DNA of 64,000 nucleotides from Eledone cirrhosa. Lineage: Eukaryota. Within the stretch, counting starts at the first letter, position 1, and every line of letters begins with the position of its first letter. Of this stretch, positions 18,909 to 64,000 are shown piece by piece. Under the pieces are notes generated by a model. That model had not been told where the DNA came from and did no database searches. It saw only the letters and a program-made list of their open reading frames with translations. Where the stretch lies: assembly GCA_964016885.1 (NCBI GenBank), contig OZ024741.1, positions 57,102,001 through 57,166,000 on the forward strand, written 5' to 3'. A program made the translations under genes and the position numbers.

Positions 18909-18939
<31 letters not shown>

Positions 18940-18998
18940 AAGGTTTAGCAAATAATGAAAAAGTTTCAAAATAAATTTTGACTTTACCTACTATAGTT

Positions 18999-19081
18999 AC
19001 CTTTACCGATCGGTTTCGAATCCCAAAAATAAACGGAGACCATACGGCCTTCGTTGCAAAGAAAGATTCTCGTCAGAAGGT
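18999..19081 (-). ncRNA. Type I hammerhead (mirror copy)
   Basis: Reverse complement of 19163-19245. Confidence 0.85.
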
Positions 19082-19162
19082 TCTTTTCATTCGAAGAATA
19101 TAAAATTCCTGAATTTAAATTACGAACTAGCGCTATCAAAACTGTTCCTTCGAATGAAAAGA

Positions 19163-19245
19163 ACCTTCTGACGAGAATCTTTCTTTGCAACGAAGACCGT
19201 ATGGTCTCCGTTTATTTTTGGGATTCGAAACCGATCGGTAAAGGT
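19163..19245 (+). ncRNA. Type I hammerhead ribozyme
   Basis: ACCUU-CUGACGA-GAAUCUU...GGGAUUC-GAAA-CC(GAUC)GGUA|AAGGU. Confidence 0.9.
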
Positions 19246-19417
19246 AACTATAGTAGGTAAAGTCAAAATTTATTTTGAAACTTTTTCATTATTTGCTAAA
19301 CCTTGTTTATATTTGTTCTGGCTCGTTAATTTATTAACCTGCCATTGAACCACACTGGCATTTGGTTGGACAATACATGCGTACCTTAGCGCCTTGTGCG
19401 TGAAGGAACACATATCC

Positions 19418-43785: not shown

Positions 43786-44160
43786 ATAGCGCCGAAATCC
43801 ATATTTTACTCATCTTGTTGCAAGGATTGCAAGGGGAGGAAGATAGACAAATACCAGGACTTGACTGACTGCTTCATTTTCGTGCTGGTCACCGTTGAGA
43901 CCTCTGGTGCTCTCGGTCTCCGAAATGACGTTGTCCTCTGCAAAATAGGCATGAGTGCATCCAGCCTCAGGAAGGAGCCCCGTGAGGTGGAATGGTTAAC
44001 ACAGAAAATAGGGTGGCTGTTCTCCGCGGTGTTGCCTTTGCCATTTTGTCCGCGAGGAACAGCTGAAATATACCGCCTAGACTGGAGTGTAGAGTCTGCT
44101 GCTCCCTCACCGCTTTATCTTACTTTCATTATTTAATTTTTTTTCTCTCTTTTCTTTTTC
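43786..44160 (+). mobile_element. CRE-like RLE retrotransposon 3' fragment
   Basis: RKIDKYQDL...VTVETSGALG......KIG......EPREVEWLTQKI, then a T-rich UTR. Confidence 0.7.
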
Positions 44161-44896
44161 ATTACAAACATTATATAACCCAAATGAAATGTGTAGAATA
44201 ACATTTATTCTTTACCTACTCAACAAAGGTTCTTACATAAAATTATGATACAAAGTTTTTTTCTAGATAAATATAAATATTTTAATAATTCACAAGTTAA
44301 ACTTTCAGTTAAACGATCGAACAACAGCTGAGTGTTTCATCGCCGAAAGCAATGGAAGATCAATCACACTAACGTAACCTTGAAGACACATTCTTTCTTT
44401 CACTTTTCTTCCTTTTTTCTTTCTTTTTTCTTCCTTTTTTCTTTCGTTTTCCTTTCTTTCTTTTTTCTTCCTTTTTTCTTTCCCTTTTCTTTCTTTCGTT
44501 CGTTCGTTCGTTCTTTCTTTCTTTCGTTCGTTCGTTCGTTCTTTCTTTCTTTCTTTCTTTCTTTCTGTCTTTTATAAATCAAATACGAAAGAAAATACGA
44601 TACAATAAAATGCAGGTCTAAATAATCAGGTGAGAACATCCCCCAGCTGTGAATAAGTTAATCATTAGATCCTTCACTAAAGAACACTGCTAACAGACAC
44701 CTTTAGTCCAACCAATGTATTGGAGTGCATTGAGAGGTGAGGATGAGGCCCAGGTGGGATGGGGTAGGGTGTGGAACTAGTCTGCTGTCTGATAGTCAAT
44801 CTGTATGTCAATATATCGATTCAGCTTAGAGTACGATCGATAATACTTGTCTATCTATCCGTTTTGGCACTGCTGCATGGTGTGTGGATATCAAAA

Positions 44897-46360
<1,464 letters not shown>

Positions 46361-46699
46361 CCCATAACCACCACGAAAGTAATTGGATGCCTGTCCCACA
46401 ACGACAACGTATCTTTTAGCCTTGAAACTTTTCTTTGAAGTCGATTCTTCACCTGAACCCAGCACCACCAACCTTCTCCGTCAAGGTGAACTTATCCATA
46501 AATTCTCAACTGCTTCTCCGTCTCCGATGTGCTCTGTAAACTAACTATATTTTCTGTTCGTGTGCGTGAGCATGAGTGTGGGTATACATACACACATACA
46601 TACATATATACATACATGCATGCATACATACATACATACATACATACATACATACATACATACATACATACATACATACATACATACATACATACATAC

Positions 46700-49600
46700 A
46701 TGACTCTACTGAACAAACAGTGCACCAAAAACTTGTGAAGACCCTACAAGTGATATGGAACGATATGTTTCAAGAGATACACAGCCTTAATGTGAGTGAC
46801 AGACCATACAACACCAGAGTCAGTAAAGAACCCACTAAATTGGAATTGGAAGCGGTGAACGAAATAGCTGGCAATTATCTGAAGGCTATACGATCTAAAG
46901 GTGTAGAAACGACATTTGAAACGCTTAATGTTTTGTTATATGTTTCAGCTGTCACATTGCTATCATATAACACACATCTAAAACCACGCAATCAAGATAC
47001 AAACAGAAAGCCTGAACCAGCGTGGATGCGAAATTTAAAAACCGAAATTTTGTCCCTGAGACGAAGTATCTCACACATCGCAGTCGTTATGAAATGCAAC
47101 ATAGAGAGCAACTTCACACGACACCAGGAAGACCTAAAGAAAAAGTTAGAGAGACGATTTGGAGATACAAAATTTAAAACTTTGAACTCTAAATTACACC
47201 AGTTGAAACAACAACTCACAGCTACAACAGAAAGACTAAAATATAAGTCAACAGCACATAAACGACAAGTGCTAAATAGATTGTTTGCCAGAGATCCTAA
47301 ATCAGTTTATCGCAGCTTCGGTGGCAAAAGCTCAATCCCTGTAAACGACACCCCTTCAAAAGAACAGGTTGAGAGCTACTGGAGATCTGTATGGGAAACG
47401 GATGACGGATTCAACAGACAAGCTAATTGGCTAAAAGAACTGGAACAGGACTACTGCCAACATGTCCAGACAAAACAATATGACATAGATGGGTCAATAC
47501 TGGAAACAGCTCTACAGAAAATGTCGAATAGGAAATCACAGGCCCAGACCTCATTACAGGATACTGGTTGAAGAATTTCACTTTCTATCGGCAAGATCTC
47601 ATACGGCTGTTTACAGAAACCATTAAGGGCACACAAGAACTGCCCAGATGGTTATCAACTGCCACTACTCTCCTCATTCCCAAAAATAGCCAAACCACCC
47701 TTGCTAAAAATTACCGCCCAATTGCCTGCCAAAACATCATGTATAAATTATATACTGGGTGCCTTAACCTGTTCTTACAGGATCACTGTGCTACCAACAA
47801 CATCATAACACCTGAGCAAGCTGGTGGAAAGAGGGAGGTGTGGGGTTGCATAGATCACCTACTAACTAACAAAATGATTCAGGAAAAAACAACAAAGAAT
47901 CGCAGAAACATGACTGTCGTGTGGCTGGACTATCAAAAAGCATTTGATAGTGTACCTCATGGGTGGATTATTAAGGCTTTACTGTTAGCTAGAGTCCCAC
48001 AACCATTGGTAGCTGCTGTTGAACGCCTGACCAAGAACTGGTACACCAATTTGATCCTTAGAGGTGAGAAGGAGCAGGTTAAGACTGATAGGATACATTA
48101 CCAGAAGGGCATCTTTCAGGGTGATAGCTTGTCAGTGCTACTCTTCGTTCTCTCACTGAATCCACTATCTTACCTACTCAGGAAACAAGGTCGACAAAGA
48201 AGTGGGCCCAGAAGTATCTCCCATCTTTTCTTTGTTGATGACCTGAAGTTGTATGGGCCAAATATCAATGACATCAAGAAACAATTGGACCTCATTACAC
48301 AATTTTCAACCGACATCAAAATGAAATTTGGTGAGTCCAAGTGTGCATATTTGGCAGTAAAACGTGGAAGAGCTGTGCCCTCCTCTAGAAATCTAGAGAT
48401 GAACGGCCTGACAATACAACCTCTACAGTCAGGTGACAACTACAGATATCTTGGACAGGATGAGAATGTCAGATATGATGGACCCATAAATAAGGAGAGA
48501 ACCAGAACTGAATACCTCAGAAGAGTAAAGAAAATATGGTCATCAGAACTGTCAGCATACAACAAATACATTGCCCACAATACTTATGCTGTACCAATTC
48601 TAACGCCAACATTTGGCCTACTGAACTGGTCATTGCAAGAACTAAGTGAGATGGATGTTAGAACTCGAAAACTTCTCAGTGTTACTGGCAACTTTAACAT
48701 CAATGGTGATGTGGATAGGCTATACTTCTCACGCAAGGAAGGTGGCCGGGGTCTAAAATCAATATTAACAACATATGAAACCCGGATAGTAACACTGAAG
48801 CAACACCTTCAACAGAGGAAAAAGGTTGGCAACCATCTTGCCCAGGTTTATGAGCATGAAAAAAGAAATATCATTAGAATAGCGACTGATCTGGAGGAGA
48901 GATATGGAATAAAGCCTGATATAAATCTCTCACCCAGAGAAATCGGAATATCCTATTCAATGTTCAAACAAGATAAGAAAATTGACCAATTTACAGAAAA
49001 AGTTGTGCGTGGATACTTGAGGCGTAAAACACAGACCATAGAGGGGATAAACCACTCAAAAAGCCTGGCATGGAGTTCCGACAAGTTTATGACATCACAC
49101 CTTGAGGGATATCTCTATGCAATACAGGAACAAGAACTCCCTACCAAATATCTGCTGCACAAAAGAGGAGGGCCAGCAGCTGACAATAAATGTAGGCTAT
49201 GTAAAACAAAGATCGAGGATGTAAGCCACATTATTGCCAGCTGCGAAAGAATGTCATCTCGCTACTACCTCCCCATGAGACACGATGGGATAGCTAGAAC
49301 CATCTGGAACGCACTTCGGAAAACAAAATTAACAACAAACGAGGAAGAATATATTGAGAGAGATGGCACTAAGGAATACTGGTGGAACCTGAAAATAAAA
49401 ACTGCCACCAAATTAAAGCACAACCGGCCTGATATTGTTGTTTGGGACCACCCATTGAAAACGTGTTCTGTTGTGGAGATCAGCTGCCCACTTGATGTAA
49501 ACGTTGTCAGAAAAATACAGGAGAAGGAGGACATCTACGGACCATTGATGAGGAGTTTACAAATCCAGTATCCAAGATACACCTTTAGCTTCATACCCAT

Positions 49601-49763
49601 CATTATTGGTGCTACGGGTTATATACCAACCCGCTTGGACCAAAGTATGACTGAACTTGGATTTGCGGACAAAAAGCGCAGCTCCCTAATTCATAGTCTG
49701 CAAATGGCTGCGATAGCTGGCACCTTCAAAATTTGCAAAACATTCTTGCGATTCAAGGGATGA
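46700..49763 (+). pseudogene. RT-RLE ORF broken by one apparent 1-bp deletion near 47539
   Basis: NYRPIAC, WLDYQKAFDSVPH, GIFQGDSLS, HLFFVDDLKL, YRYLG, CRLC..EDVSHIIASC, RHD, HNRPDIVVWD, VVEISCP. Restoring one C gives KSPGPDLITGYW. Confidence 0.9.
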
Positions 49764-49846
49764 CAATTTCTTTTCTTTTACAACCTTGCCACCAGGAAGG
49801 TGGCCGGTCAAAAAAATATACTCGAAATTAAGAGAAAGAGAAAATA
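46700..49846 (+). mobile_element. Dong/R4-like RLE non-LTR retrotransposon, family 1, 5'-truncated, in (TACA)n
   Basis: RT, CCHC and PD-(D/E)xK-type endonuclease. Short 3' UTR. (CATA)n on both sides. Confidence 0.93.
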
Positions 49847-49920
49847 ACATACATACATACATACATACATACATACATACATACATACATACATACATAC
49901 ATACATACATACATACATAC

Positions 49921-50349
49921 ATACTCCACCCTAACTATACCTTCAGATTTATACCTGTGATTATTGGAGCACTGGGATATGTTAGTAACTGCTCAATACA
50001 CATTTTGAGAAACAGAAAGAACACAACTAGTTAGGAAATTACAAGTAGAATCCATTAATGGAACAGTAAAAATATGTAAAACATTCCAAAAATTCTGCAT
50101 CTAATAACTGCATGTACATATGTACCGATATAAAGCATATACACATGTACACATACAACTCAAAACATCCACATCCACATACACAATAACATCCATACCT
50201 GCACACACATGTATGCAGACATGCATAAATATCTACCTAGTTAATGTTGTGTAAATTCCAATGAGAGAGTCTTGTGTCTATGTTAGAAACCGACTCTCTC
50301 TCTCTCTATTGGCAAAAATGTATAAAATTATAAAATCAGAAGAACAGAC
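49921..50349 (+). mobile_element. 3' fragment of Dong/R4-like family 2
   Basis: YTFRFIPVIIGALGYV, with a 3' UTR matching 31490-31990. Confidence 0.88.
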
Positions 50350-50356
50350 ATATATA

Positions 50357-50429
<73 letters not shown>

Positions 50430-51270
50430 TCAAACCTTGCCCTGGAAATACGTCTTCCTTCTTGCTCTCGTGGTATAAGCAGATTGCACCAAGCCGCAAC
50501 TGAGAGAAAGCAGACCATCCGCCGACTTCGTAATAAGAAGACCCCCTCCATGCTTGCTATCAGGAACGTGCCTGGGGTTCTTCACTCTGAAGAGAAGTGC
50601 ATCTCAGGAGATGGAGAGAATACTTTATCGATCCGCCAGATCCGGTCTAAATGGGTGTAGGATCAATCAGCTAGAATTTGCAGAGTGGGAATCAAGTGCA
50701 GATTTGAGGCTGCAGCCGACGTAACTACCCTCTTCCCATTTGAAGGAGGTAAATACCTTATCTGAGAGGTCACATGCTGTGACTCGTTCTCCGCCTCCAG
50801 CTTAGTCGCTTCGGCCACAAACTCCGGTACCACTTCCTACAATGCAGAGGACAAGAAGACAAGCAAATACTGGGGCTTGTCCGGCCGCTTCCTCTTCGCA
50901 TCGGGACCTCAGGTGACCTTGGACCCAATACTGCCGAACTCCTCCGTAAAATCGGTACGTTAATAGTCCGTCTGAAGAAGGAGGCCCGTGAGTTATGGTG
51001 GCTGTTGCAACGAGTATCACTGGCCATTGTCCGCGGAAATGTCTTGCAGTTTTGTCCGCTAAGCTCAGTCGAAACACCCTATGCATAGCGCCTGTCACCC
51101 CACCCCACCCTAACTTCTTACGTGACGTAATAGTTCTTGCTTTTTCTCTCCTTTTACTCTCAATTATGGCATTTATAGTCCTTTCCTGTACTTTCCTATA
51201 CAGCCAGATCTACCCTTCTTTACCCTCCCCCTCTTTTCATTACTTAATTTTGTTTTATGTTTTATTTTAA
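50430..51270 (+). mobile_element. CRE-like RLE retrotransposon 3' fragment (degenerate)
   Basis: Manual translation across frameshifts: TTLFPFEGGKYLI.EVTCCDSF, AEDKKTSKYWGL, TSGDLGPNTAELLRKIG, WLLQRVSLAIVRGN. Confidence 0.78.
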
Positions 51271-51399
51271 ATATTTCCATCATTGGATAACTTTTTTGTA
51301 AAATATAGTTGACATAATATGATTATGTATAATTGATTAAATAAAATATTTCGTAAGTCTGAAATTTAATTAACTAAATATGAAAATTAACTAGCAGCA

Positions 51400-51622
51400 T
51401 TAGCGTTAATTTAAAATAAAATAAAAAAGGACTGTAAAATAGGAAAATATACAGTAAAAAAGAGAAAAAGAAAAAAACGGAAAAGGGAGGGAATGGCAAG
51501 GACTCTATTGTCACAGAAGAATGGGGAGAGGGAAGACAAGTGGGCTCTGTGCCTAGGGCGCGGCGGTAAAGAGGCTGCGCCCCGTGGACAGGACCGCAAA
51601 AACATTCCCGCGGAAAAGGTAG
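51400..51622 (-). mobile_element. Short 3' end of a related CRE-like element, tail-to-tail with 50430-51270
   Basis: Reverse complement TCCGCGGGAATGTTTTTGCGGTCCTGTCC...CCCTAGGCACAGAGCC resembles 51030-51092. Confidence 0.55.
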
Positions 51623-52497
51623 ATTATAATACAAAATAAACAAAAGTAATTTAATACATTTTCTTTCAAAAATACTTATTATAGCTACACAGTTTCGAAA
51701 TGGCTAAGAGAAATCCAGGTACAAATTCAGGTACAAAAATGTATTTCACTCGCTTCCTGTCAAAGTAACTTGATAGTGTTTGCTAGCAGCGGAACCCTGA
51801 TCAAAGCGGTCGGTATCCACTGTCTATAGACCCGATCATACAGCCTATCTCCACTAGTACAACCCCTCTACTATCTCCCACAACAACGATAATATATAAC
51901 AAAACAACAACAAAGACTGCAACACCACCAACAACAAGAGAAATCGAAACCTCTCCATCACCACTTCTGTCACTACCACAGAAATAGTTGACAAAGCAAC
52001 TTATACCGAGCCGACGAAATTCAGTTCAAATACAATAACAGTTTCAGAGAGAAAATTGAGAATTTCAGGGAAAATTTCCCTATCTTAGATCAAAACAACA
52101 TGTCCACTACCACCAATAACAGCATCGCTCGCATTACTACAATCACCGCTACCAATACCAACTCTGCTACCACCATTAGCACCACCAACACCTCAGTGGC
52201 GGCTGTAACTGACAACAGCAACAACAATAAAAGTATTCTGAAGACTTGCTCCTTTGCAGGGGATGCAAAATCGTTTGAGCTAGTATCCGTGGAAATGAAC
52301 ATACAGACCTGAAAGAGGCCAGGAAAAGCTGTCCACACAGATGACAGAAAAGCTACACTTTCCGTATTACCACAACTACTCGAGGAAACGACCGAGAGAA
52401 CCGTGATACACCGATGTTTACAAATCTCGTGTCGCAGAAAAATAGAAGAAAGCCTCAAGCCAGCATGGCATTACATTGGTTTTGTAACACAAGCAAG

Positions 52498-52618
52498 ATA
52501 ATTGTTTCTACTTTTGACATAAGGCCAGCAATTGTTCCAGTGTATTACTGGTACTTTATTTTATCGACTCCGTAAGGATGAAAGGCAAAGTTAACCTCGG
52601 CGGGATTTGAACTCAGAC
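52498..52618 (-). mobile_element. SINE family A, 3' half
   Basis: Core and tail present. Confidence 0.85.
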
Positions 52619-53072
52619 CAAGATAATATGGGTGCATGAGAGTCGATTTCCACATGGAAGCTCTGAGAAAAATACACTGCCATCCCATGCAAGAGTGAAG
52701 AATTCGTCCTCTTTCCCACATATTTAAACTAAAGTGTCGTAAAAGAAAATATTTTTGAAGAGCCACCAGAGCTGGATTTCGGGTCAGTGGTCAGTTCTTA
52801 GAGAATAGAAGTTGTTAGGAATCAAAAAGTTCTGGAAAGAAAATTGGGCTGGAATCAGATTGGAGATCCCCATCCATGAAAACCAGAAACTTTAGACAAA
52901 ATACTCTATCTAATCGATATAAAACATAGTCAGCAACTGCATTGTAATTGAGAGCAGAAAAGTCAGATGTCACACGTGAGGAAGTAAAAGCCACCTGAAG
53001 GTCAATGAAAACTTGCGCTGCTGTCAACAACATAACCACAACATCAACAACAGCTACTACAAATTCAACAAC

Positions 53073-53153
<81 letters not shown>

Positions 53154-53157
<4 letters not shown>

Positions 53158-53352
53158 AGAGTCAGGACCCCAACGGCTGAGCTCCGGCCGTTTCGACAAC
53201 TAAATCCGAACAGTTCGGATCTAGCTGTCGAAACGTCTGGAGCTCAGCCGTTGGGGTCCTGACTCTTTTCATATTACCCACTCTACTACTCTACGTATTG
53301 ACTACTCTGGTGCGTTGTGATCCACCTGGTATCTTACCACACCCTCTTTGTT
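53154..53352. mobile_element. Fold-back PLE remnant (family of 62241-64000): 117-bp hairpin plus tail
   Basis: 53154-53270 is self-complementary. The tail matches the reverse complement of 62241-62325. Only the 3' half of the HHR is present. Confidence 0.85.
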
Positions 53353-53415
<63 letters not shown>

Positions 53416-53464
53416 CATTGCTAATTTTGTCCCTCATATCAAGAATTTGAAGACAATTCATTTT

Positions 53465-53536
53465 CACCTGACGAGATCAGTGATAATCCATCATGGCTTC
53501 ACGATCAATCAATCTCTTATTGAAACATGTGTCGTA
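53465..53536 (+). ncRNA. Hammerhead ribozyme (partly degenerate)
   Basis: CAC-CUGACGA-GAUCAGUGAU...AUCUCUUAUU-GAAA-C(AUGU)GUC|GUA. Lies in a (TA)n-flanked insert at 53418-53587. Confidence 0.6.
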
Positions 53537-53582
53537 ATTAAAATGATTGGAAATTTTACCTTGCCTTCGGATTTTCATTTTG

Positions 53583-53622
<40 letters not shown>

Positions 53623-53985
53623 TCTATTTAGGTTTAATCGATACATATTAAATATATATCGATTGTGTTTCTCAATAAAATAGCTCCATGAACATTAGTT
53701 CAGAGCATCAATTATACAAGTTTAAACGATATATATAAAGAGGGTATATATAAACTGAGAACTTCTAATATTTTCTCCATACATACAGAGTAAATGATAT
53801 GTAAGTAAATATATTTACTTCAAGGTGGTAACGAACTTATATTTCCTTATACACATCTGTTTCATAAAACTCAAAGAAGGAAGCAAATCATCGATCTAAG
53901 TAATCATTTATCAATCACCAATAATCGATTTTGGTAATAAGCTTCTTAAAACCTGGATGTTAATCTTCAGTAAGGTTAGGCCTTC

Positions 53986-54036
<51 letters not shown>

Positions 54037-54079
54037 TATATATATATATGTATATATATGTATATATGTGTGTGTATAT

Positions 54080-54198
<119 letters not shown>

Positions 54199-54253
54199 AA
54201 TCAGGAAAGAAGGTTTACATGGTTTGCTATACAAAAAAGTTTTTAATCACATA

Positions 54254-54359
54254 GCTTACATTTGTTTCACTGAACTGGTATGTCTAGAGATCGCTATCCG
54301 CTTAATTTTGCGTTACTCGATCGCCAATACAGAATTATAACCAGTCAGATCTTCGGAGC
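54254..54359 (-). ncRNA. Hammerhead variant with CCGAAGA core and long stem II
   Basis: Reverse complement GCU-CCGAAGA-U-CUGACUGGU...ACCAGUUCAG-U-GAAA-C(AAAU)GUA|AGC. Confidence 0.65.
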
Positions 54360-55205
54360 ATGCGAGAATGAAGAAAATACACAGGCAAGAAAAGAAAAGA
54401 AAATATGGAGTAGTTATGGCATTCAATTAGAACAATAACAACAATTACAACAATGCTATCAATAAACTATTTAAGGAGACCCTGACATTACTTAGGTGGG
54501 GGGTATATAATGTATCTAATGTTACGGCGTGAAAACCAGCTGTCATAAGGCAAAAAGTATCGTAGTGTGTATCAATTTTAAATTATAAAGATAAGCTAGT
54601 TTTTACAGTCTTTCTCTTCATCTTCAACAGTATACATGAGTGGGACCACTGTCAAAGCTCAATAGTTGTAGAGTTAATACAGAGGTTAACGAATTAATAT
54701 ACGCATATATCTACGCACACACACATACACATACACACATATATATATATAAATATATATACACATATATGTGTACATAGACACATACATACACATCAAT
54801 ATACACTCGTACAAAAATATACATACATGCAAAGAGAAAAGCGTGCTAATTGTAATATGGCAAAAAGAAGGTAAAGTAACATTGTAGTAGTGAAATGAGA
54901 AAAACTAGGATCTAGGATCAAATGATTGCAGCAGCTGAGAAGGAGTAAAATTGTTGGTAGATGAGGTACTTACAGACAATTGTGTGGTATAGACTTGTGA
55001 AGGAAATAGTATACTTAATGAATATATTTCTGTGGGTAGTAGGTATCTTACTCATCACTGTAACTTCAACTACCACCACCACCACTACTATTATCAGCAA
55101 TCGTATTCTGAACTTATTTTTTTACTTATTTTTTACATTTTTATCATCTTCATTCTAACTTCTTTATTATTATCTTATCTTTTATTATTGATGTATTGTT
55201 TGTTG

Positions 55206-55394
55206 GGTGGATTGGCAGTATCGGTAGAGGGTCGGATGCCTTGCTTTGACGCATAGAGTTACGGCCCTTGCCATTCTGAGTTCAAATCCCGCCGAGGTTA
55301 ACTTTGCCTTTCGTCCTTACGGGGTCGATAAAATAAAGTACCAGTAATGTACTGAGTAATTGCTGGCCTTGTGCCAATAGTAGAAACAATTATT
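55206..55394 (+). mobile_element. SINE family A
   Basis: Full copy with TSD-like TTATTGATGT..ATTGTTT. Confidence 0.88.
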
Positions 55395-55461
55395 GATGTT
55401 ATTGTTTTGATTCTCCGATCAATAAATATCTATAAATACCAATGCCATGTGTTAAACCCTC

Positions 55462-55576
55462 CAGTATTCTGATGATTTGATCAGAGACACACACTGTATT
55501 TAAGGTCGACTGACGCAACTTTGAATGATTAGCGGCCTTTAGACTCACCTGATCAATGAAACAATTGTTAATACTG
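55462..55576 (+). ncRNA. Type I hammerhead with U·U-closed long stem II
   Basis: CAGUAUU-CUGAUGA-U-UUGAUCAG...CUGAUCAA-U-GAAA-C(AAUU)GUU|AAUACUG. Confidence 0.85.
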
Positions 55577-55737
55577 TAAATAAAACCCTTTTTGTACAGC
55601 CGACCATGTTATTCTTCACTCTTTCACTACTATATATATATATATATCACTCGATATGCAAATTAGGCTGCTCAGCCGTTAATATGCATAAGGAAAGTAT
55701 ATACTTTCAGACGTTCAATCATCTGGCAGGAAGGTAT

Positions 55738-55780
55738 ACGTTGCTGACGATAGCTTATAAGCTTGAAACTAGTACAGCGT
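55738..55780 (+). ncRNA. Minimal hammerhead
   Basis: ACGUUG-CUGACGA-U-AGCU(UAUA)AGCU-U-GAAA-C(UA)GUA|CAGCGU. Confidence 0.8.
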
Positions 55781-56369
55781 TCCTTTGGCTGATCTCAAAT
55801 CACGGAATCTCACAGAGGAGATAACAAAGGAAGACAATAAATGGAGGAATGCTATGTTGAAAAAGTTGTGTCTAACTCTTGCAAGCATGGAAGTGTGTAC
55901 ATATAATGATGGTGACGATGATTACAGAGACACAACCTAAACACTAATTAATTATATTCAACAGTTTAGGCTTAAGGAATGTGTAATATATTGCACATTT
56001 TTTTTTAAAGAAAAAACTGATGTGACCTTATTTGCATTGAGTGGAAATTTTTATCATTCATAATCTAGACAATCTAGAAAATTTAGTAACATTCATTTTT
56101 GTGGTAAAATTAATAGTAGATAAGCCTCTATAGTGCAAAATCATAGCCAGTGAGGTGCTTTGGAATATAATTTAATAAAGATTCTTACATGAAATTATGA
56201 GGAAAAGCTCTTGAATAAATATAAGCACTTTAAAACAAACAGTTTTGTATCATAGAACCAGGGACGGTTTCAGGAGTTTGGGTTCTCAAAATGATTATTT
56301 TTAACATGGCTCTTCATAATCTAGTCAATTTGGGAAAATAAGTAACATTATTGTGGTATAATTAATATT

Positions 56370-56685
56370 GACAGGGGTATCAGTTTAATTGACGTTGCTG
56401 CCAAAACCTTCGCAATTCTTCTACTGAAGAGGTTGAAGGCCATCCGTGATGTCCGTACCCGTCCTTCTCAGGATGACATCGTGTTGATGGACGCTAACGG
56501 GACAGATGTACAAGGTGCTCTCGAAATGGTGCACACTGCAGCCGCTGCTGTTGGTCTACGAATCAATGCCGCCAAGTCGAAAGTCATGACGTCACTGGTC
56601 TCGCCTGATGCCTGGCAGCCAATATCTCTCGAGGGTGTGGACCTGGAGGCTGTGGAGTGCTTCGTTTACCTGGGCTCAACAGTGG
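56370..56685 (+). pseudogene. Internally deleted RTE-like RT fragment
   Basis: RGISLIDVAAK..., DDIVL, VGLRINAAKSKVM, VECFVYLGS. Confidence 0.8.
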
Positions 56686-57006
56686 TTATATGGTTATTAG
56701 CATGTATATGTTAGTGTTTACACATGTGTGTGCATAAGCTTGTATGACTGTCTGTATCTATGTATGTATATATCAAATGGGAAGGGAGATATATATCCAG
56801 AGCTTTTGGTAGTTGGACGAGAAGAGGTGGTTATGGCAGAGAGTTAAGAGGGTTAAATATCTACAGCTTGTATTAGAAAGTTTCGGATGGGAAGAGGTGA
56901 TGTGTAGTGGTCAGTGCTGTAGTCACTGGTGACCAGAGAGAAGGAGTGCATGGTGGGGTGGACATGTTAAAGTGTGTTCTAGCTTGGTAGTAGATGTGCA
57001 TGTATG

Positions 57007-57070
<64 letters not shown>

Positions 57071-57121
57071 GAATAAGGAAAAGCGAAGTAGTTTCAGATG
57101 TTCAAGTCCTTTAATAATAAT

Positions 57122-57195
57122 GCTGTGATATATATTTCAGTGACGACACTGGCCACACTGTTCTGTGTGCGAGTGTCGTGTCATCATCAGACAGC
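57122..57195 (-). ncRNA. Type I hammerhead ribozyme
   Basis: Reverse complement GCUGU-CUGAUGA-UGAC-ACGACACU...AGUGUCGU-CACU-GAAA-U(AUAU)AUC|ACAGC. Confidence 0.8.
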
Positions 57196-57777
57196 TTGTT
57201 ACATAATAAGGTTATGTTTCCGAGGCAATCCAAATTGGATCGACAAGGGAACGGATGGATTGCGTGTTCTTGGGTTTTTCATCCGCTCCCTTGTGAGTAC
57301 CAATTCACCCCCACCGGCCTGCGCAAGCGCATGTCCGAAGGAAGTTGACCATTCTCCACCGCAGACTTCAACGAAATTTGCTTAGTCAGTTCACCCTCTC
57401 AACCAAAACAATGGCCCACCAATGCCTGTACCATATTTTACTGCTACCCATCACGGCTGTGGCAGTCAGCCGAGAGCCAGAGGGGATGGGAGAGTGTTAG
57501 TTTTTACAGGTCATAATACTACCCCTCACTAAGCGTTGATGGTACGACTGACCATCACCTTATTAGGGAAAATAAACTTATTTCTAATATTTGATTTAGG
57601 ATTTTAATTTTTATTTCTAACTCTCACTCTTAACTTCCAACGTAAAACCAAGATACCTAGAATAAGTTTATTTACATAACTAAATATACATATATACACA
57701 TACACGCACGTGTACACACACACACACACATATACATATGTCCGTATATATACCCCTCCGTTCACACATACATGCAT

Positions 57778-57827
<50 letters not shown>

Positions 57828-57828
<1 letters not shown>

Positions 57829-57967
57829 ACGAAGGAAATGTGGTAAGGAAGCAGATGGACCATAACGCACCAAAGTACTCAGTACTTAGGGTAGTAGAGT
57901 GGGTAATAGGAACAAGTATGAACCCGACGGCAAAGCTCAAGCCGTTTCGACGGCTAATTCTGGACTA
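57828..57967 (-). mobile_element. 3' end of PLE (family of 62241-64000) in (TA)n
   Basis: Aligns to 62241-62380. Confidence 0.88.
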
Positions 57968-57969
57968 TA

Positions 57970-58001
<32 letters not shown>

Positions 58002-58017
58002 GTTTTAATATAGATGA

Positions 58018-58066
58018 GATTCTACAGGACTAGAACTGTTTCATTCTTTAGAAATCATCAGGAATC
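58018..58066 (-). ncRNA. Type I hammerhead (U·U-closed stem II)
   Basis: Reverse complement GAUUC-CUGAUGA-U-UUC(UAAA)GAA-U-GAAA-CAG(UUCUAGUC)CUGUA|GAAUC. Confidence 0.8.
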
Positions 58067-58070
58067 TGCT

Positions 58071-58120
58071 GATTTCCTGATGATTTCTAAAGAATGAAAC
58101 AGTTCTAGTCCTGTAGAATC
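58071..58120 (+). ncRNA. Type I hammerhead (mirror copy)
   Basis: Same motif on the + strand, with one extra U in stem I. Confidence 0.75.
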
Positions 58121-58204
58121 TCATCTATATTAAAACTTTTATACTCTGCAATGTATTGAGTACCTTACTTACTGTGGTTACCTCCGATTCAACCCGGAAT
58201 AACG

Positions 58205-58237
<33 letters not shown>

Positions 58238-58260
58238 GTATATATATATATATGTGTGTG

Positions 58261-58294
<34 letters not shown>

Positions 58295-58420
58295 TATATT
58301 TGTGTGTGTTGTTTCCTTAAGCAAGACACTTTATTTCATATATATATGTATATATATATATGTATATATATACATGTATATATATATATGTATGTATATA
58401 TATATGTATATATATATGTG

Positions 58421-58488
<68 letters not shown>

Positions 58489-58491
<3 letters not shown>

Positions 58492-58795
58492 TTTCCTTGA
58501 GCAAGACACATTATTTCACATTGCTCCAGTTTACTCAGCTGTAGAAATGAGATGATAGGACTGGGGTCCTTATCATTCCACTGCAAAGTGGTCGTGTAGG
58601 TGCCACGGCAAAAAAGCACCCAGCCCACACTGTAAAGTGGACGTGTAGGCGCCATGGAAAAAAAGCACCCACCACTCACTGTAAATGAGGTTGGTGTTAG
58701 GAAGGGCATCTAGCTGTAGAAATCAAGCCAGAATCAGTTCCCGTCCCACCCTTGCAAGCAGGGAAAAGCGAACGTAAAATGATGATGATGATGAT
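58489..58795 (+). mobile_element. SINE family B body fused to an RTE 3' UTR with (GAT)n tail
   Basis: 58578-58732 aligns to RTE UTR 35323-35472. Confidence 0.8.
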
Positions 58796-58892
58796 ATATA
58801 TATATAAACTATAATAAAGTAAGGAGTGCGGGACTGCATACGGTTTATTTCTTTTAATCCAGTTAGTAAAATAAGCTGGATTACTTTGAATA

Positions 58893-59281
58893 AATAATTG
58901 TTTCTACTTTTGGCACAAGGCCAGCAATTATCCCAGTGTATTACTGGTACTTTATTTTATCGACCCGGTAAGGATGAAAGGCAAAGTTAACCTCGGCGGG
59001 ATTTGAAATCAGATCATAAAGGGCCGTAACTTTTTGCTGCAAAGCATGGCGTCCGACCCTCTACCGATACTGCCAATCCACTGCCCTTTGAATAAATAAT
59101 TGTTTCTACTTTAGGCACAAGGCCAGCAATTACCCAGTGCATTACTGGTACTTTATTTTATCGACCCCGTAAGGATGAAAGGCAAAGTCAACCTCGGCGG
59201 GATTTGAACTCAGATCGTAAAGGGACGTAACTATGCTGGAAAGCATGGCGTCCGACCCTCTATCGATACTGCCAATCCACC
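58893..59281 (-). mobile_element. Two tandem young SINE family A copies
   Basis: Full-length copies. TSD CTTTGAATAAAT around the first. Confidence 0.9.
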
Positions 59282-59768
59282 ATAAATAATGAATGAATAT
59301 TACATAATTTATCTGCTAAATTTTGTAGCTGTTGATTAAATATATTTTATTGGTTATTTACAGATTCACTTTTTTAAAATTTTCAAATATCAACACTTCC
59401 AGTTAGCGATCGCTTAAATAAACATTCATATATTTCCATCACTAATTTTTTTCTAATGCAGTTTATATAAAATATCGTCTTTTTGTAATGTATCATGGAT
59501 TACGTTACTGATTACATAAGAGAGTGTAACGCAGTCTTCGTTCAATTTCTGTGTATATTGTCAATTATGTTTTATTTGATGTATCATATCTACATGCATA
59601 TATACTTGTGTATAATATCAATATACACACTACACATGGTAGTAGAAAACCACCCGAAGGGTGATTTTTCTGCTAGTGTATGTAAAAAGTAAACAGAAAT
59701 AAAACAATTGGTACAGTATATGGAAGGAATATATATTAGTATAAAGCTTGCAATAGCAGGAAGAGAGT

Positions 59769-59802
59769 CTTAACGTTTCGGGCACTAGTCCTTCATCAGA
59801 AG
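59769..59802 (-). ncRNA. Minimal hammerhead with loopless palindromic stem III
   Basis: Reverse complement CUU-CUGAUGA-A-GGAC(UAGU)GCCC-GAAACGUU|AAG. Confidence 0.7.
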
Positions 59803-60028
59803 AAAGAATGAGAAATTAGAAAGATTGTAGGAACGGGCAGGGCGGAATCAGAAAACATGTCTTTAGAGAAAAATAACAGGACCATTTATGTTTCCATTTC
59901 TTGGAAAACTGACGATGCTGGCGTTTTGTGTATGATATATATATATTTAGAAAAGCGCATCTACCTGAAATGGGAAAAAAAAACGTTTTGTATATAGAGC
60001 TATGTGTGTGCGTATGCATGTGTGTCTC

Positions 60029-60109
<81 letters not shown>

Positions 60110-60524
60110 GTACGCCTGTACGAAGCTAAGAGGATATTTGTGTGTATATGTAAGTAAAATAAGTGTGTGTGTGCTTGTAAGTACAAAGCTGTGAGCAAAA
60201 GTATGTTAATAAAAGGGAGTGTGTGTGTATACAGAGCTGTGAAAGGAAAAGGAGGTGTGTGTGCATATTTTGTTTGCCTGTATCAGCTGTAAGTGTTTCT
60301 GACCATAAATGAGCCATAGGAATTAAAAACGATAAATGGAAAAAATGAAACGAAATTTCATTTCTCACTCTTAGTACGGCTGTTACTTAAATATAAGTAT
60401 GTACACGTACATACATATATGTATACAGACGTACAGTAGTATGTATATATATATACATACATGCACACATATATATATATGTACGTATATACTTTCAGAC
60501 GTTCCATCTGGCAGGAAGGTATAC

Positions 60525-60563
60525 GGTGCTGACGATAGCTAATAAGCTTGAAACTAGTACATC
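60525..60563 (+). ncRNA. Minimal hammerhead (family of 55738-55780)
   Basis: GGUG-CUGACGA-U-AGCU(AAUA)AGCU-U-GAAA-C(UA)GUA|CAUC. Confidence 0.78.
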
Positions 60564-60761
60564 ATTCCTTTGTCAGTGTTGAACAAACGAGCAACGATGG
60601 TTGCTAAACACTGTACGGCTTAATTCGGGATGTTTGTTTACAAACACACCGAGCATTATAATAAATGTTCGGTAAATCCATACGTACATATATATGTGTG
60701 TGCATGTATATATATATATATATATATACTACTGTACGTCTGTATACATATATGTATGTAC

Positions 60762-60844
<83 letters not shown>

Positions 60845-60847
<3 letters not shown>

Positions 60848-60928
60848 ACATGTTCAAGACCTCGACGGCAGAGCTCAAACCGTTTCGACGGTTATTTCTG
60901 GACCTGGTTCCTTTCCACACTTCCTTCG

Positions 60929-60930
<2 letters not shown>
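60845..60930. mobile_element. Rearranged mini-remnant of the 62241 PLE family in (TA)n
   Basis: A minus-strand half-HHR joined to the plus-strand tail CTGGTTCCTT.CCACA.TTCCTTCGTT. Confidence 0.75.
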
Positions 60931-60970
<40 letters not shown>

Positions 60971-60981
60971 TATATATATAT

Positions 60982-61505
60982 AGTTTTGCGAGGTTTTTAA
61001 TATGAAATCGTGTGTCGAAACAAATATTGTTATACTTGGGGAGGGTCATATTTGTGTAATATTGCCAGAATTAATAACAGAACACACTCACTGTTTGGTT
61101 GGTTTTCGCTTTTCGCTTCTGTGTCTTTTATATCGGTAATCTAATTTATTTGGTCCTCAATGTTGCCATTGACTGACCAACGGTTAAAAATAATACAAAT
61201 ACAGTATAGACACAAACACATATATATAGTTTATCAAAGTTCTTTCGTTGCACATCTGCAACATCGTCAGTGGTGCTATTGTTTCCTCCCGTTGCATTGT
61301 ATTTTCTACGCCATCTTTGGTCAGTCAATATTTTCTACGCCAACCGTTGGTCAGTCAATGGCAACATTGAGGACCGATATAAAAGATTACCGATATAAAA
61401 GACACAGAAGCGAAAAGCGAAAACCAACCAAACAGTGAGTGTGCTCTGTTATTAATTCTGGCAATATTACACAAATATGACCCTCCCCAAGTATAACAAT
61501 ATATA
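60982..61505. mobile_element. Inverted-repeat element in (TA)n (arms ~61024-61185 / 61343-61502), PLE-like
   Basis: Long inverted arms with a one-sided tail. Terminus shared with 376-400. No complete HHR seen. Confidence 0.7.
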
Positions 61506-62188
61506 TATTAATGTTTGCTTTCCCTGCTAGCAACGGTTGGGTGGGTCTACATAAGTCAGTTCTGAAGCAGAGCTACTGATCTCCCTGACAGACCAGAAAT
61601 CTGTCGTCTCGCTTATGTACGGTTTCACGTTTTACCGAGTGCAGAGGAGAGGTTGTAATGTCTTTGACACAACTGAACAGTCCTCACGACTCTTTGTTTG
61701 GCAGGTTTTCTCCAGCCTTTCTCCAGCCTCTCCTGTCACCAACCATTTTACAAGGTGGACTGAGTGCGTCTATCGTGTTAATCACCAACTTTAGGTAGGT
61801 TGACATGTCTTTGACGCTGCGGAATATTCTTCCCGGGCTTTTGTTTGGTAGTAATAATAAGTTTTTATGCTTTGATAATAATGATGATGATAATGAATTT
61901 TCAGGTTTTGAAGATGATTAAAGGTTTTATTACAAACTTCTTATTGTGTTTTTATGTATGATAGTCGTGCTAGTAGCTTGTTCTCCTATAACATGTTTTC
62001 TACTACTGCTAAGCTGGTTTTGTTTCTGTAGTAAAGTTTTCCTATTGTATACACGAATGTTATTTTCATTGTAAACGACTATTCTTCTTGTCTTTACATT
62101 CAACAGAAAGATAGAGAGAGAAAGACGAGTAGATAGATGGACTGGTGGGAAAATAGATAAGTAAAAAGACAAAAAGTTGGAGAGGCGG

Positions 62189-62242
<54 letters not shown>

Positions 62243-62333
62243 CGAAGGAAATGTGGTAAGGAACCAGGTGGACCATAACGCACCAAAGTACTCAATACTT
62301 GAGGTAGTAGAGTGGGTAATAGGAACCAGTAAG

Positions 62334-62427
62334 ACCCCGACAGCTGAGCTCAAGCCGTTTCGACGGCTAATTCTGGACTAAATGAAAATTTATCCTGGTA
62401 TTTAAATAGCCGATCTTCTCAAGGGGT
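62334..62427 (-). ncRNA. Type I hammerhead with U3-A8 core (UUGAGAA)
   Basis: Reverse complement ACCCC-UUGAGAA-GA(U)CGGCUA...UAGCCGUC-GAAA-CGGCU(UGAGCUC)AGCUGUC|GGGGU. Confidence 0.8.
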
Positions 62428-63533
62428 AATTCCATATATGGTCAAAGTGATTGTCAAAAATCAGTAGTAATTCTGTGCTTGCAAATTAGTAGGGGAGATG
62501 GTGGCTAAACCTGCCAGTAGGAGAAAGAGGGGAGGGGGTGGAGTAGACCCAATCAAGCGTTGGTAGTGCCAGCTACAGCTGGGCATGAGGTCAAAGAAGA
62601 TACAGGGGAGGGGAGGGGGAGTAATTCGGAACGGTAGGTAGAACAATGGGGGGTAGAAATAGGAAAGAAAAAATACTGAGAGTGAAGAAAAGCAAATAAG
62701 TGTAAAGAAAAAAGTAAAGTAAATTAAATTCAACGACCTAGGTGTCAGGCTATTGTTAGGCGAGAATAAAATAAAGAAAGAAAGAAAGAAGTAAATAAAT
62801 AAATAAATAAATAAATAAGGAAATAAGTAAGAGAACTAGGTGGGGCGGATAAGGCAAGGACCCTTTTAAGAGGTATAAGTACGTAAATGATACGGTGACG
62901 GGTCAACAAAAGGGGCCAAAATACTAAAGAGACTACCACGAAATAAACAATAAAGGTTTCCATCCCGGGCCAGCAACGACCCAGTGCAGCAAAGTGAACT
63001 TGTACGAGATAATAATTCTGAGTCCCGAGAAAAATATATACTAATGCTAACTCTAAAAGATCTAAAACAAGCTACATGAAAGTTCGTACGAAATAAAGGT
63101 AGAATACGGAGAAATAAATTCAGAATCCACCCCGCCCAGAAGAAAAGCGAAGCAAGAAATACTGAAACGAAAAAATAAGGCATAAGTGCCACTAAGAAAT
63201 ATAGAGGGCACAGAGAATAGTGGGAGCGGTCGGAAAAAGGGGGAAAGTATCCGGGGTCTAAGCCAACTGCTATAAAGGGCGGAGACCGCCAAATCTATCA
63301 AAGACATGGGGAGGGGGGGGGGGGGTACTAAGGCTACATGGGGCCAAAGGGCAGCCTCGGGTGGGCGAGAAAAGACGCCGACAAAGGAGAAGAGCTGGGG
63401 TAGAAGGACAAAGGAGAGAGGGGGGAAGGAAATAAAGGAAGCGATAAAAGAATACAAAGAAGATCTTACGTCTTACTTGGCAAGCAGGGGTTACCCATTG
63501 CAAAATCGGCAACTGGGGTGTTATAGCCCTAGT

Positions 63534-63998
63534 CTACCCCCCCGGGTCATTATGGGGTTTGAGGGCGAGGTAAGTCCTACGCAATCTATGTTTACATGCA
63601 GTAACCAGTTCATCTTTCTTGTTTAGGAGTTGGTCCGTCGAAAACAGCATTTGTAAAGTTTCCTCCGAGCATAAATTGCACGGACGGCGTCCTCCCGTGT
63701 AAGAATTGGCTCTGGACAGTAATCTCCAAGTGAGATCATAGGTGATGTTGTTGTCCTTGAGGTCCCATATGTGGCCCGAAAGTGTAGTGGCGTGACGCCG
63801 GGCCGGGTTTCGGAAGGTATGTCTATGTTGGTATAGCCGGGTCTTGAAGTCACATGCGGTAAGTCCTATATAGGCTTTGTTGGAGGTATCCGTCCTCACG
63901 TTGCACTGGTAGATCACATTACGGTCTCTGCATCTATTGTCGAGTGGGCAAATAGATCTATCCGGGCAGTTACACCTCCTGGTCGGTTCTCCACTGCT
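63534..63998 (-). CDS. PLE GIY-YIG endonuclease (partial, runs off the window)
   Basis: CNCPDRSICPLDNRC linker (CxCx5Cx5C), NVIYQ...YIGLT..FKTRLYQH...LSGHIW.LK...CNLCSEE...LLNK. Confidence 0.9.
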   Translation of the reverse strand, partial: SSGEPTRRCNCPDRSICPLDNRCRDRNVIYQCNVRTDTSNKAYIGLTACDFKTRLYQHRHTFRNPARRHATTLSGHIWDLKDNNITYDLTWRLLSRANSYTGGRRPCNLCSEETLQMLFSTDQLLNKKDELVTACKHRLRRTYLALKPHNDPGG

Positions 63999-64000
63999 AA

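Follow-up and report, generated by a model that had tools for sequence, protein, structure and literature searches.

The 3′ end of a Hydra-clade Penelope-like element (PLE) of Eledone cirrhosa carries a hammerhead ribozyme with a U3-A8 core and abuts a (TA)n repeat, and the ends of its genomic copies suggest that the element RNA starts within loop II of the upstream hammerhead, so that the 5′ copy would be half a ribozyme and only the downstream copy, whole, would be likely to cleave itself after GUC. On balance we consider this reading, drawn from comparison of genomic sequences, to be probable. It was built from a 64,000-nt stretch (the window, G000:C2:57102001-57166000), from copies retrieved across the genome, and from the contigs of three runs; from these contigs only depth, variants and joints were taken, and those of run X1 are independent of the assembly copies. 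The features of the window are collected in Table 1.

Table 1. Features of the PLE 3′ end and of related remnants in the window (distances with a sign are counted from the predicted cut)
Feature	Position	Strand	Remark
Head-to-head short-arm pair, oldest large subfamily	53154..53356	+	5′ ends -41 and -40
Short insertion, older sister subfamily	57827..57967	-	5′ end -41/-42, long tail
Short insertion, older sister subfamily	60845..60931	-	5′ end -40, joined to inverted tail piece
(TA)n target repeat	62191..62240	.	
80-nt tail to long-arm 3′ end (+99/+100)	62240..62318	-	likely second RT start site
3′ end of short (inverted) arms, about +19/+20	62319..62320	-	likely first RT start site
Complete type I hammerhead fold (stems I, II, III)	62334..62427	-	stem covariation, descriptor match
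Stem I	62427-62423 with 62338-62334	-	5 bp
Core U3-U4-G5-A6-G7-A8-A9 (UUGAGAA)	62416..62422	-	
Stem II	62415-62407 with 62369-62362	-	8 bp, one bulged U
Conserved YAGT motif, loop II	62375..62385	-	A at 62379 (-41) likely RNA start (putative role)
G12-A13-A14	62361-62359	-	
Stem III	62358-62353 with 62345-62340	-	6 bp, one G-U
Predicted cleavage bond after GUC	62338..62339	-	C17 = 62339, G1.1 = 62338
Pyrimidine-rich 3′ untranslated region	62428..63533	-	1.1 kb
3′ end of RT-endonuclease ORF	63534..64000	-	last 154 aa + stop, Hydra-type endonuclease region
CxCx5Cx5C linker (Hydra-type CxCx5C)	63930..63974	-	

A complete type I hammerhead follows the endonuclease ORF

The hammerhead at 62427-62334 is real as a fold. 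Three stems surround the core, the structure is open at stem I, and G12-A13-A14 and a U-H cleavage site are present; loop II measures 37 nt, and the 7-nt loop of stem III contains a GAGCUC palindrome. The core lies 1,111 nt beyond the stop codon of the endonuclease ORF on the same strand, matching the approximately 1.1 kb past a GIY-YIG stop given in an earlier note on this DNA, and stems, descriptor search and covariation likewise bear out that note's complete hammerhead with a UUGAGAA core, 5-, 8- and 6-bp stems and a GUC site. By RNA folding, the hammerhead is the minimum-energy fold of this copy, with an energy no better than that of shuffles (z 0.41; z -0.78 in a second run). The type I descriptor yielded three matches in the window, namely this hammerhead and a pair of another family, and 0 matches in 30 locally shuffled windows, while an Rfam search of 44000-64000 gave no hammerhead among the 150 matches listed, which were microsatellite-driven.

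Covariation was assessed on 70 natural copies chosen from 108 distinct ones, plus the window copy. Across the 70 copies, 83% of the stem cells paired compared with 24-49% in slid controls, and changes on both sides of a pair were found in 56 cells versus 33 in shuffles, with 0 of 500 shuffles as high. One stem II pair, for example, reads G-C in 42, A-U in 17 and G-U in 7 copies, counts of a kind that relatedness inflates; the covariation is seen across subfamilies. Two other registers of the core were ruled out. The one with G8-A9 taken from the GA that follows the core fails because other subfamilies have C or U in place of this A, and the one lacking position 7 because the G concerned varies across copies. 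Stems II and III also share CGGCU/AGCCG (62340-62415), so that the 3′ strand of the former and the 5′ strand of the latter are able to pair; such pairing would hide GAAA and is predicted for an RNA without the 5′ half.

The element has the motifs of a Hydra-clade PLE

By its ORF motifs and a by-eye match to published rows, the element is a Hydra-clade PLE. The ORF at the window end runs on into G000:C2 as one arm of an inverted, 5′-truncated pair, then breaks past the window end and is followed by the inverted second arm with its own whole hammerhead. These arms are 99.8% identical and cover only ORF residues 537-717 and 316-717, thus the window copy is young but not autonomous. The earlier note had called the element here autonomous; the window copy lacks the first 315 residues, and the intact copy is instead L012 (G000:C2:78635001-78645000), in which a 723-aa ORF runs from the first ATG. 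L012 is arranged as an inverted repeat, a direct repeat with hammerhead, tail, the 723-aa ORF, 3′ UTR, hammerhead, tail and (TA)n, i.e. an element with direct and inverted pseudo-LTRs that has the tail on one arm only. Its single ORF joins a reverse transcriptase (RT) to a C-terminal GIY-YIG endonuclease, in agreement with the note's claim that the hammerhead is physically part of a PLE with a C-terminal endonuclease.

The L012 ORF displays RWR, DKT, CxCx5Cx5C (CNCPDRSIC), CNLC before the conserved E and CKH after the conserved N, and has neither a Cys pair (CxxC) inside the GIY-YIG core nor the CCHH motif. Among the 120 database relatives listed of 2,016, RW[KR] was found in 113, DK[TS] in 114, CxCx5C in 115 and the inner Cys pair in none. 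The Hydra clade is described as having RWK, DKT, CxCx5C, CxxC and CxH around E and N, and (TA)n targeting, and the Nematis clade as having a CX2-5CxxC linker with the CCHH motif and two Cys inside the GIY-YIG core (PMC8557442); the L012 ORF was matched by eye to the Hydra rows in the supplement of that paper, while the C-x-CxxC linker and two inner Cys of the Nematis endonucleases in the published alignment are absent from it. The CxCx5Cx5C linker noticed earlier is indeed present, and it is of Hydra type, so the Nematis-like assignment that came with it did not stand. Pfam and PDB searches gave no match for the element ORF, and the Pfam GIY-YIG profile matched 2 of 50 aligned proteins at E 0.006, a weak profile support.

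A second Hydra-type family, with 53% protein identity, lies just past the window end as an inverted pair (L011 6600-10000, L125 1-2200), and both of its arms hold a hammerhead-like fold with the core CAGAAGA, A being at position 4. Near-identical pieces of the element were also seen in a second organism, e.g. with 5 differences in 302 bases between contigs of run X5 and L012. A 122-aa frame in the window at 56346-56714 (+) presumably resembles a non-LTR reverse transcriptase fragment.

U3-A8 is the norm and C3-A8 a frequent mismatch

The element is very abundant, an 18-mer of the hammerhead 3′ half having 63,606 matches in the genome. With one flank set, 3,315 genome matches were U3-A8, 1,162 were C3-A8 and 3 were C3-G8. 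U3-A8 is thereby the norm across copies, a point that the earlier note had left to be checked; its reading of U3-A8 as a compensatory change fits these 3,315 matches and does not fit the 1,162 that carry the C3-A8 mismatch. With the core left free, hand counts on the first 100 of 4,708 matches gave 79 U3-A8, 18 C3-A8 and 3 other, and those on the first 100 of 3,270 matches with a second flank type gave 62 U3-A8, 16 C3-A8, 4 U3-G8 and 18 other. Position 7 among these 62 was C in 23, A in 22, U in 13 and G in 4. In the core-free patterns U4-G5-A6 and A9 were thus kept while position 7 took all four bases, the pattern expected of a hammerhead under selection. The run X1 contigs agreed in having U3>C in 27% of depth and a variable position 7, with no A8>G at the 3% threshold.

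In complete copies of the oldest large subfamily, that of the 53154 remnant, UUGAUAA was read at 21 of 25 retrieved loci, and a few very old relics have C3-G8 or U3-G8. Four near-identical U3-G8 relics (L198-L201, G000:C440) are spaced about 26.5 kb apart and probably go back to a single old insertion that lies within a tandem segmental repeat. A canonical C3-G8 subfamily among the recent families was ruled out, there being 13 genome-wide matches, most of them scattered in a C3-A8 background.

The U3-A8 pair is already published for a Penelope-like hammerhead (PMC4209133) and for other natural hammerheads (PMC3088659), the latter paper also giving it as active in vitro with reference to another work. 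In a mutational scan of a different hammerhead, all single and double core mutants had low activity except the G-C swap (PMC9901934). Our literature search for the U3-A8 hammerhead matched PMC4209133 alone and that for the C3U plus G8A double change found nothing relevant, and earlier reports of either may exist.

A prolific lineage carries the mismatched core

The C3-A8 copies have common diagnostic flanks, occur on both arms of single insertions, and encode ORFs 89-96% identical to the young family. Fixed differences between the two comprised 68 synonymous and 16 non-synonymous changes in 514 codons (pN/pS 0.06), against 47 synonymous and 77 non-synonymous private changes, indicating that the C3-A8 lineage was protein-coding and active; on this codon pattern, its ORF was under purifying selection. 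Long-arm tail matches numbered 9,799 for the C3-A8-type tail versus 5,588 for the youngest U3-A8 family. In 12 of the 12 complete copies that were typed, this tail type is coupled with C3, and 7 of 10 sampled loci running through to the core read C3-A8. Because the lineage spread so widely, a perfect 3-8 pair is seemingly not needed for cleavage, or cleavage is not needed for mobility.

Within-subfamily distances were 0.22 for relics, 0.15 for old, 0.09 for intermediate, 0.05 for C3-A8 and 0.02-0.03 for recent copies, with a few rows misbinned. Two trees, one keeping 50 of 63 rows and the other built on 126 rows and 148 columns with some loci entered twice, placed the C3-A8 copies between older and younger U3-A8 groups, with unsettled bootstraps and weak rooting; the second Hydra family was tried as a root of the ORF tree and dropped as too distant. 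From these weakly rooted trees, the core likely passed from C3-G8 to U3-A8, then to C3-A8 and back to U3-A8.

Insertion ends cluster in loop II and at the predicted cut

Insertion ends were surveyed on the first 100 matches each of the young-family and C3-A8-type tail patterns, amounting to 200 loci and 333 arms, all within the first 70 Mb of one contig (C1), and positions were counted from the predicted cut, with 0 as the first base after GUC (G1.1). An insertion typically consists of two head-to-head arms that end +20 and +100 past the cut site, both in (TA)n, and both arm junctions have TAT in common with the target. At about +100 in (TA)n end 196 of the 200 sampled long arms, and 133 of 178 truncated long arms are accompanied by an adjoining inverted short arm; in full-length copies the 80-nt tail continues into the ORF side.

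At the other side, 219 of 333 arm 5′ ends fell at -47 to -35, with peaks at -41 (44), -40 (38), -35 (24) and -44 (22), while the next 33 nt (-80 to -48) received only 2, i.e. there is a hard outer edge, which we place at -45 (62383). A further 22 arms ran through and 57 ended at -34 to -3. The run X1 contigs showed the same depth step at -45 to -36, and the same outer edge was found in the oldest subfamily, whose loop differs. The loop-II A at -41, not required by any search pattern, occurs in all 70 aligned copies, and a T stands two bases past it in 69 of 70, the rest of the loop being variable; this YAGT motif resembles an invertebrate initiator.

An extra G at a cDNA end marks a copied cap. 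At junctions with extra bases, arms ending on the -41 A had an untemplated G next in 12 of 18 cases (binomial 0.004 at one third). Of 13 arms ending at -40, 10 had an additional C, which re-priming probably supplied, showing that such end-base counts can be artefacts; the cap-G support is likewise a small count, in which some G's may come from re-priming. The literature search yielded no source for the cap-G signature.

Exactly at position 0 ended 10 of 333 arms, compared with 1.8 per position (Poisson 2e-5). Both arms end at G1.1 in four loci (L264, L265, L356 and L312), with 1-6 extra bases between them. By lineage, cut-site ends were found in 3 loci at 0 and 3 at -1 of 100 with the C3-A8-type tail, and in 3 of 100 of the young U3-A8 family. 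The sole two full-length starts seen (L012 and L058) extend upstream of -41, so a template jump or a read-through RNA is needed for them. In L362, synthesis jumped template at -38 in loop II, resumed in the 5′ leader at about +165 and then made a second pass through the tail and the half-ribozyme, indicating that an RNA with the tail-to-ORF junction serves as template.

Remnants and neighbouring hammerhead families

The remnants at 53154, 57828 and 60845 had been described in the earlier note as orphan ribozyme remnants tied to an autonomous element. They are 82-92% identical, with 5′ ends at -40 to -42, and turned out to be short primary insertions of older sister subfamilies and not ribozymes in decay. 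At least five hammerhead-bearing families were seen in or beside the window. At 18937-19310 lies a head-to-head pair of another family, with (TA)n on its left and canonical CUGACGA type I hammerheads in its arms (cores near 19076 (-) and 19168 (+)). An inverted-arm insertion at about 61020-61500 contains, by eye, a minimal hammerhead at 61230-61275 (-) with CUGACGA, a 6-bp stem II and a 2-bp stem III, to which a CUGAAGA copy at L011 6370-6415 is related. A further inverted pair adjoining (TA)n, with a CUGAAGA hammerhead-like core, was observed at L125 3620-3850.

A possible route from loop II to the short palindromic insertions

A capped RNA would begin at the loop-II A (-41) and comprise, in order, the half-ribozyme, tail, ORF, 3′ UTR, whole ribozyme and tail. 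Its 5′ copy would lack the 5′ strand of stem I, the core and the 5′ strand of stem II, and is predicted to form a competing GAAA hairpin. The RT-endonuclease would nick both (TA)n strands and prime internally on the RNA, at +20 and +100. On the 5′ copy, synthesis so primed would run off after about 60 and 140 nt and give head-to-head cDNAs, the presumptive source of the abundant short palindromic stubs, and priming on the uncut 3′ copy would give the long copies. If the ribozyme cuts off the tail-bearing piece, priming on that piece would produce arms ending at G1.1. For the arms with the C3-A8-type tail that end at 0, either the mismatched core still cuts, or it is cut in trans, or these arms are not cleavage products; ends at 0 are equally frequent in the C3-A8 lineage and the young U3-A8 family, which fits stalling as well as cleavage. 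The pieces are in part matched by published work: in vitro, the protein of another PLE cuts both strands of its target and extends them, starting at two internal sites of the RNA between which the tail lies, and its hammerhead cuts only when the protein is present and can be dispensed with for insertion (PMC11167929), and an internal promoter is known in the D. virilis Penelope (PMC2377424).

More tentatively, the parts may form one scheme, possible though on the doubtful side, in which a start site inside the element's own hammerhead disarms the 5′ copy and leaves the 3′ copy to cut, the 41-nt terminal repeat could let the run-off cDNA jump to the 3′ end, the stubs are a fossil record of this process, some of them made from the cleaved product, and the core went from U3-A8 to C3-A8 and back.

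Alternative readings of the ends and of the core

Alternatively, RT stalling on a long RNA that stays uncut could account for the clustered ends of the same Hydra element. The ends at -41 would then lie where the enzyme meets the apical hairpin of stem II or a bound protein, and those at 0 where it meets the foot of stem III; the hammerhead would be slow or inactive and retained as a scaffold for folding or protein binding. Folding does predict an apical hairpin in loop II whose 3′ strand lies near -38 to -45. The C3-A8 lineage, for its part, multiplied while its ORF stayed intact and constrained, and its arms have ends at 0 as well; in vitro, moreover, PLE hammerhead mutants insert unimpaired (PMC11167929). 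Stalling would not be expected to produce so sharp an outer edge, beyond which the adjoining 33 nt hold 2 of 333 arms, nor the same edge in the oldest subfamily despite its different loop, nor the extra G at ends, nor pairs of arms that both stop on G1.1 in place of the unpaired C17. The fixation of U4, G5, A6 and A9 beside a varying N7 is what catalysis would demand. We regard stalling as a serious but rather unlikely account, and quite improbable is another, that the loop-II YAG is a 3′ splice or trans-splice acceptor by which the hammerhead 5′ half is removed from the mRNA. A pyrimidine run does precede the YAG at -43 to -40, and the intron of the D. virilis Penelope ends at helix I of its hammerhead (PMC4209133), but the ends, most frequent at -41 and -40 and extending to -45, take in the AG, and only 13 of 333 arms end at -39, with no constant leader joined there. 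A start of the RNA in loop II with cleavage of the downstream copy is the reading that we retain.

Hardly credible, in turn, is the combination closest to the earlier note, in which an autonomous Nematis-clade element acquired U3-A8 as a strictly compensatory change. It is in keeping with a C-terminal endonuclease with a Cys linker, with U3-A8 as the majority state and with the C3-G8 of the oldest relics; against it stand the missing inner Cys pair in the ORF and in 120 of 120 listed relatives together with their DK[TS] and CxCx5C motifs, the many C3-A8 matches, and the truncation of the window copy.

Discussion

The element resembles the C-terminal endonuclease-bearing elements of the Hydra clade (Craig et al. 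2021, PMC8557442) in its RWK-like, DKT, CxCx5C, CxxC and CxH motifs without CCHH, in a single ORF of about 720 aa, in (TA)n targeting, and in a hammerhead near the 3′ end. The 26 hammerheads of that clade in File S2 are all C3-G8 with short stems and loops, a uniformity that is partly by construction as they were found by descriptor, whereas here the core is U3-A8 or C3-A8, with an 8-bp stem II, a 37-nt loop and a 6-bp stem III. The 3′ UTR of 1.1 kb, the unit of 3.5 kb and the tail of 80 nt also contrast with the published tail norm of 30-40 bp (PMC8557442).

A U3-A8 core in a Penelope-like terminal repeat, together with a long stem II, is shared with Cercyon of Schistosoma mansoni (Cervera and De la Pena 2014, PMC4209133), a species in which U3-A8 minimal hammerheads gave about 1,300 matches, mostly as single copies. 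Cercyon hammerheads have no stem III and need dimers, whereas the 6-bp stem III here would permit folding as a monomer, as in the fungal and protist hammerheads of the same paper, whose available text contains no C3-A8 lineage or insertion-end analysis. Since U3-A8 is published in S. mansoni and all 26 Hydra rows are C3-G8, the U3-A8 core is new for the Hydra clade only.

Poseidon of Anolis carolinensis (Frangieh et al. 2024, PMC11167929) is similar in that the RT starts at two internal sites, which mark off the tail and have a hammerhead just upstream of them, and in that it targets AT-rich DNA, of which both strands are cut and extended. Poseidon, however, has a C3-G8 core and adjacent start sites inside the ORF, and RNA-seq in the accessible part of that study gave no reads that begin or stop at the hammerhead site; here the likely start sites are 80 nt apart and upstream of the ATG, TAT is common to element and target, and some of the genomic arms stop at the cut site. 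Like the D. virilis Penelope (Schostak et al. 2008, PMC2377424), whose internal promoter is TATA-less, the element may have its promoter within the terminal repeat; in Penelope, an intron ending at the hammerhead lies downstream of the RNA start, whereas the start proposed here falls within loop II, beyond the first half of the core. Neither bioRxiv 10.64898/2026.07.22.740005 nor PMC6765202, as far as their accessible text goes, altered our reading of the element. A start site inside a ribozyme, insertion ends at the cut site and a mismatch lineage were not met in the reports found, and earlier ones may exist; the insertion-end record, which likely points to an RNA start inside the hammerhead and a cut at the predicted site, is a new lead.

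The U3-A8 core taken alone is ordinary. If the proposed scheme is true, the 41-nt repeat from start to cut would play a part close to that of the R region and strong-stop DNA in LTR elements, and tens of thousands of short palindromic stubs would record that step. The role of the hammerhead in endonuclease-bearing PLEs has been stated to be unclear (PMC8557442), and this family offers a large natural record that bears on it, with ends at the predicted cut, a sharp likely start in loop II and a lineage that spread widely with a mismatched core pair. Two questions thereby become testable with short RNAs, namely whether such ribozymes cut in vivo and whether the cutting matters for the mobility of the element.
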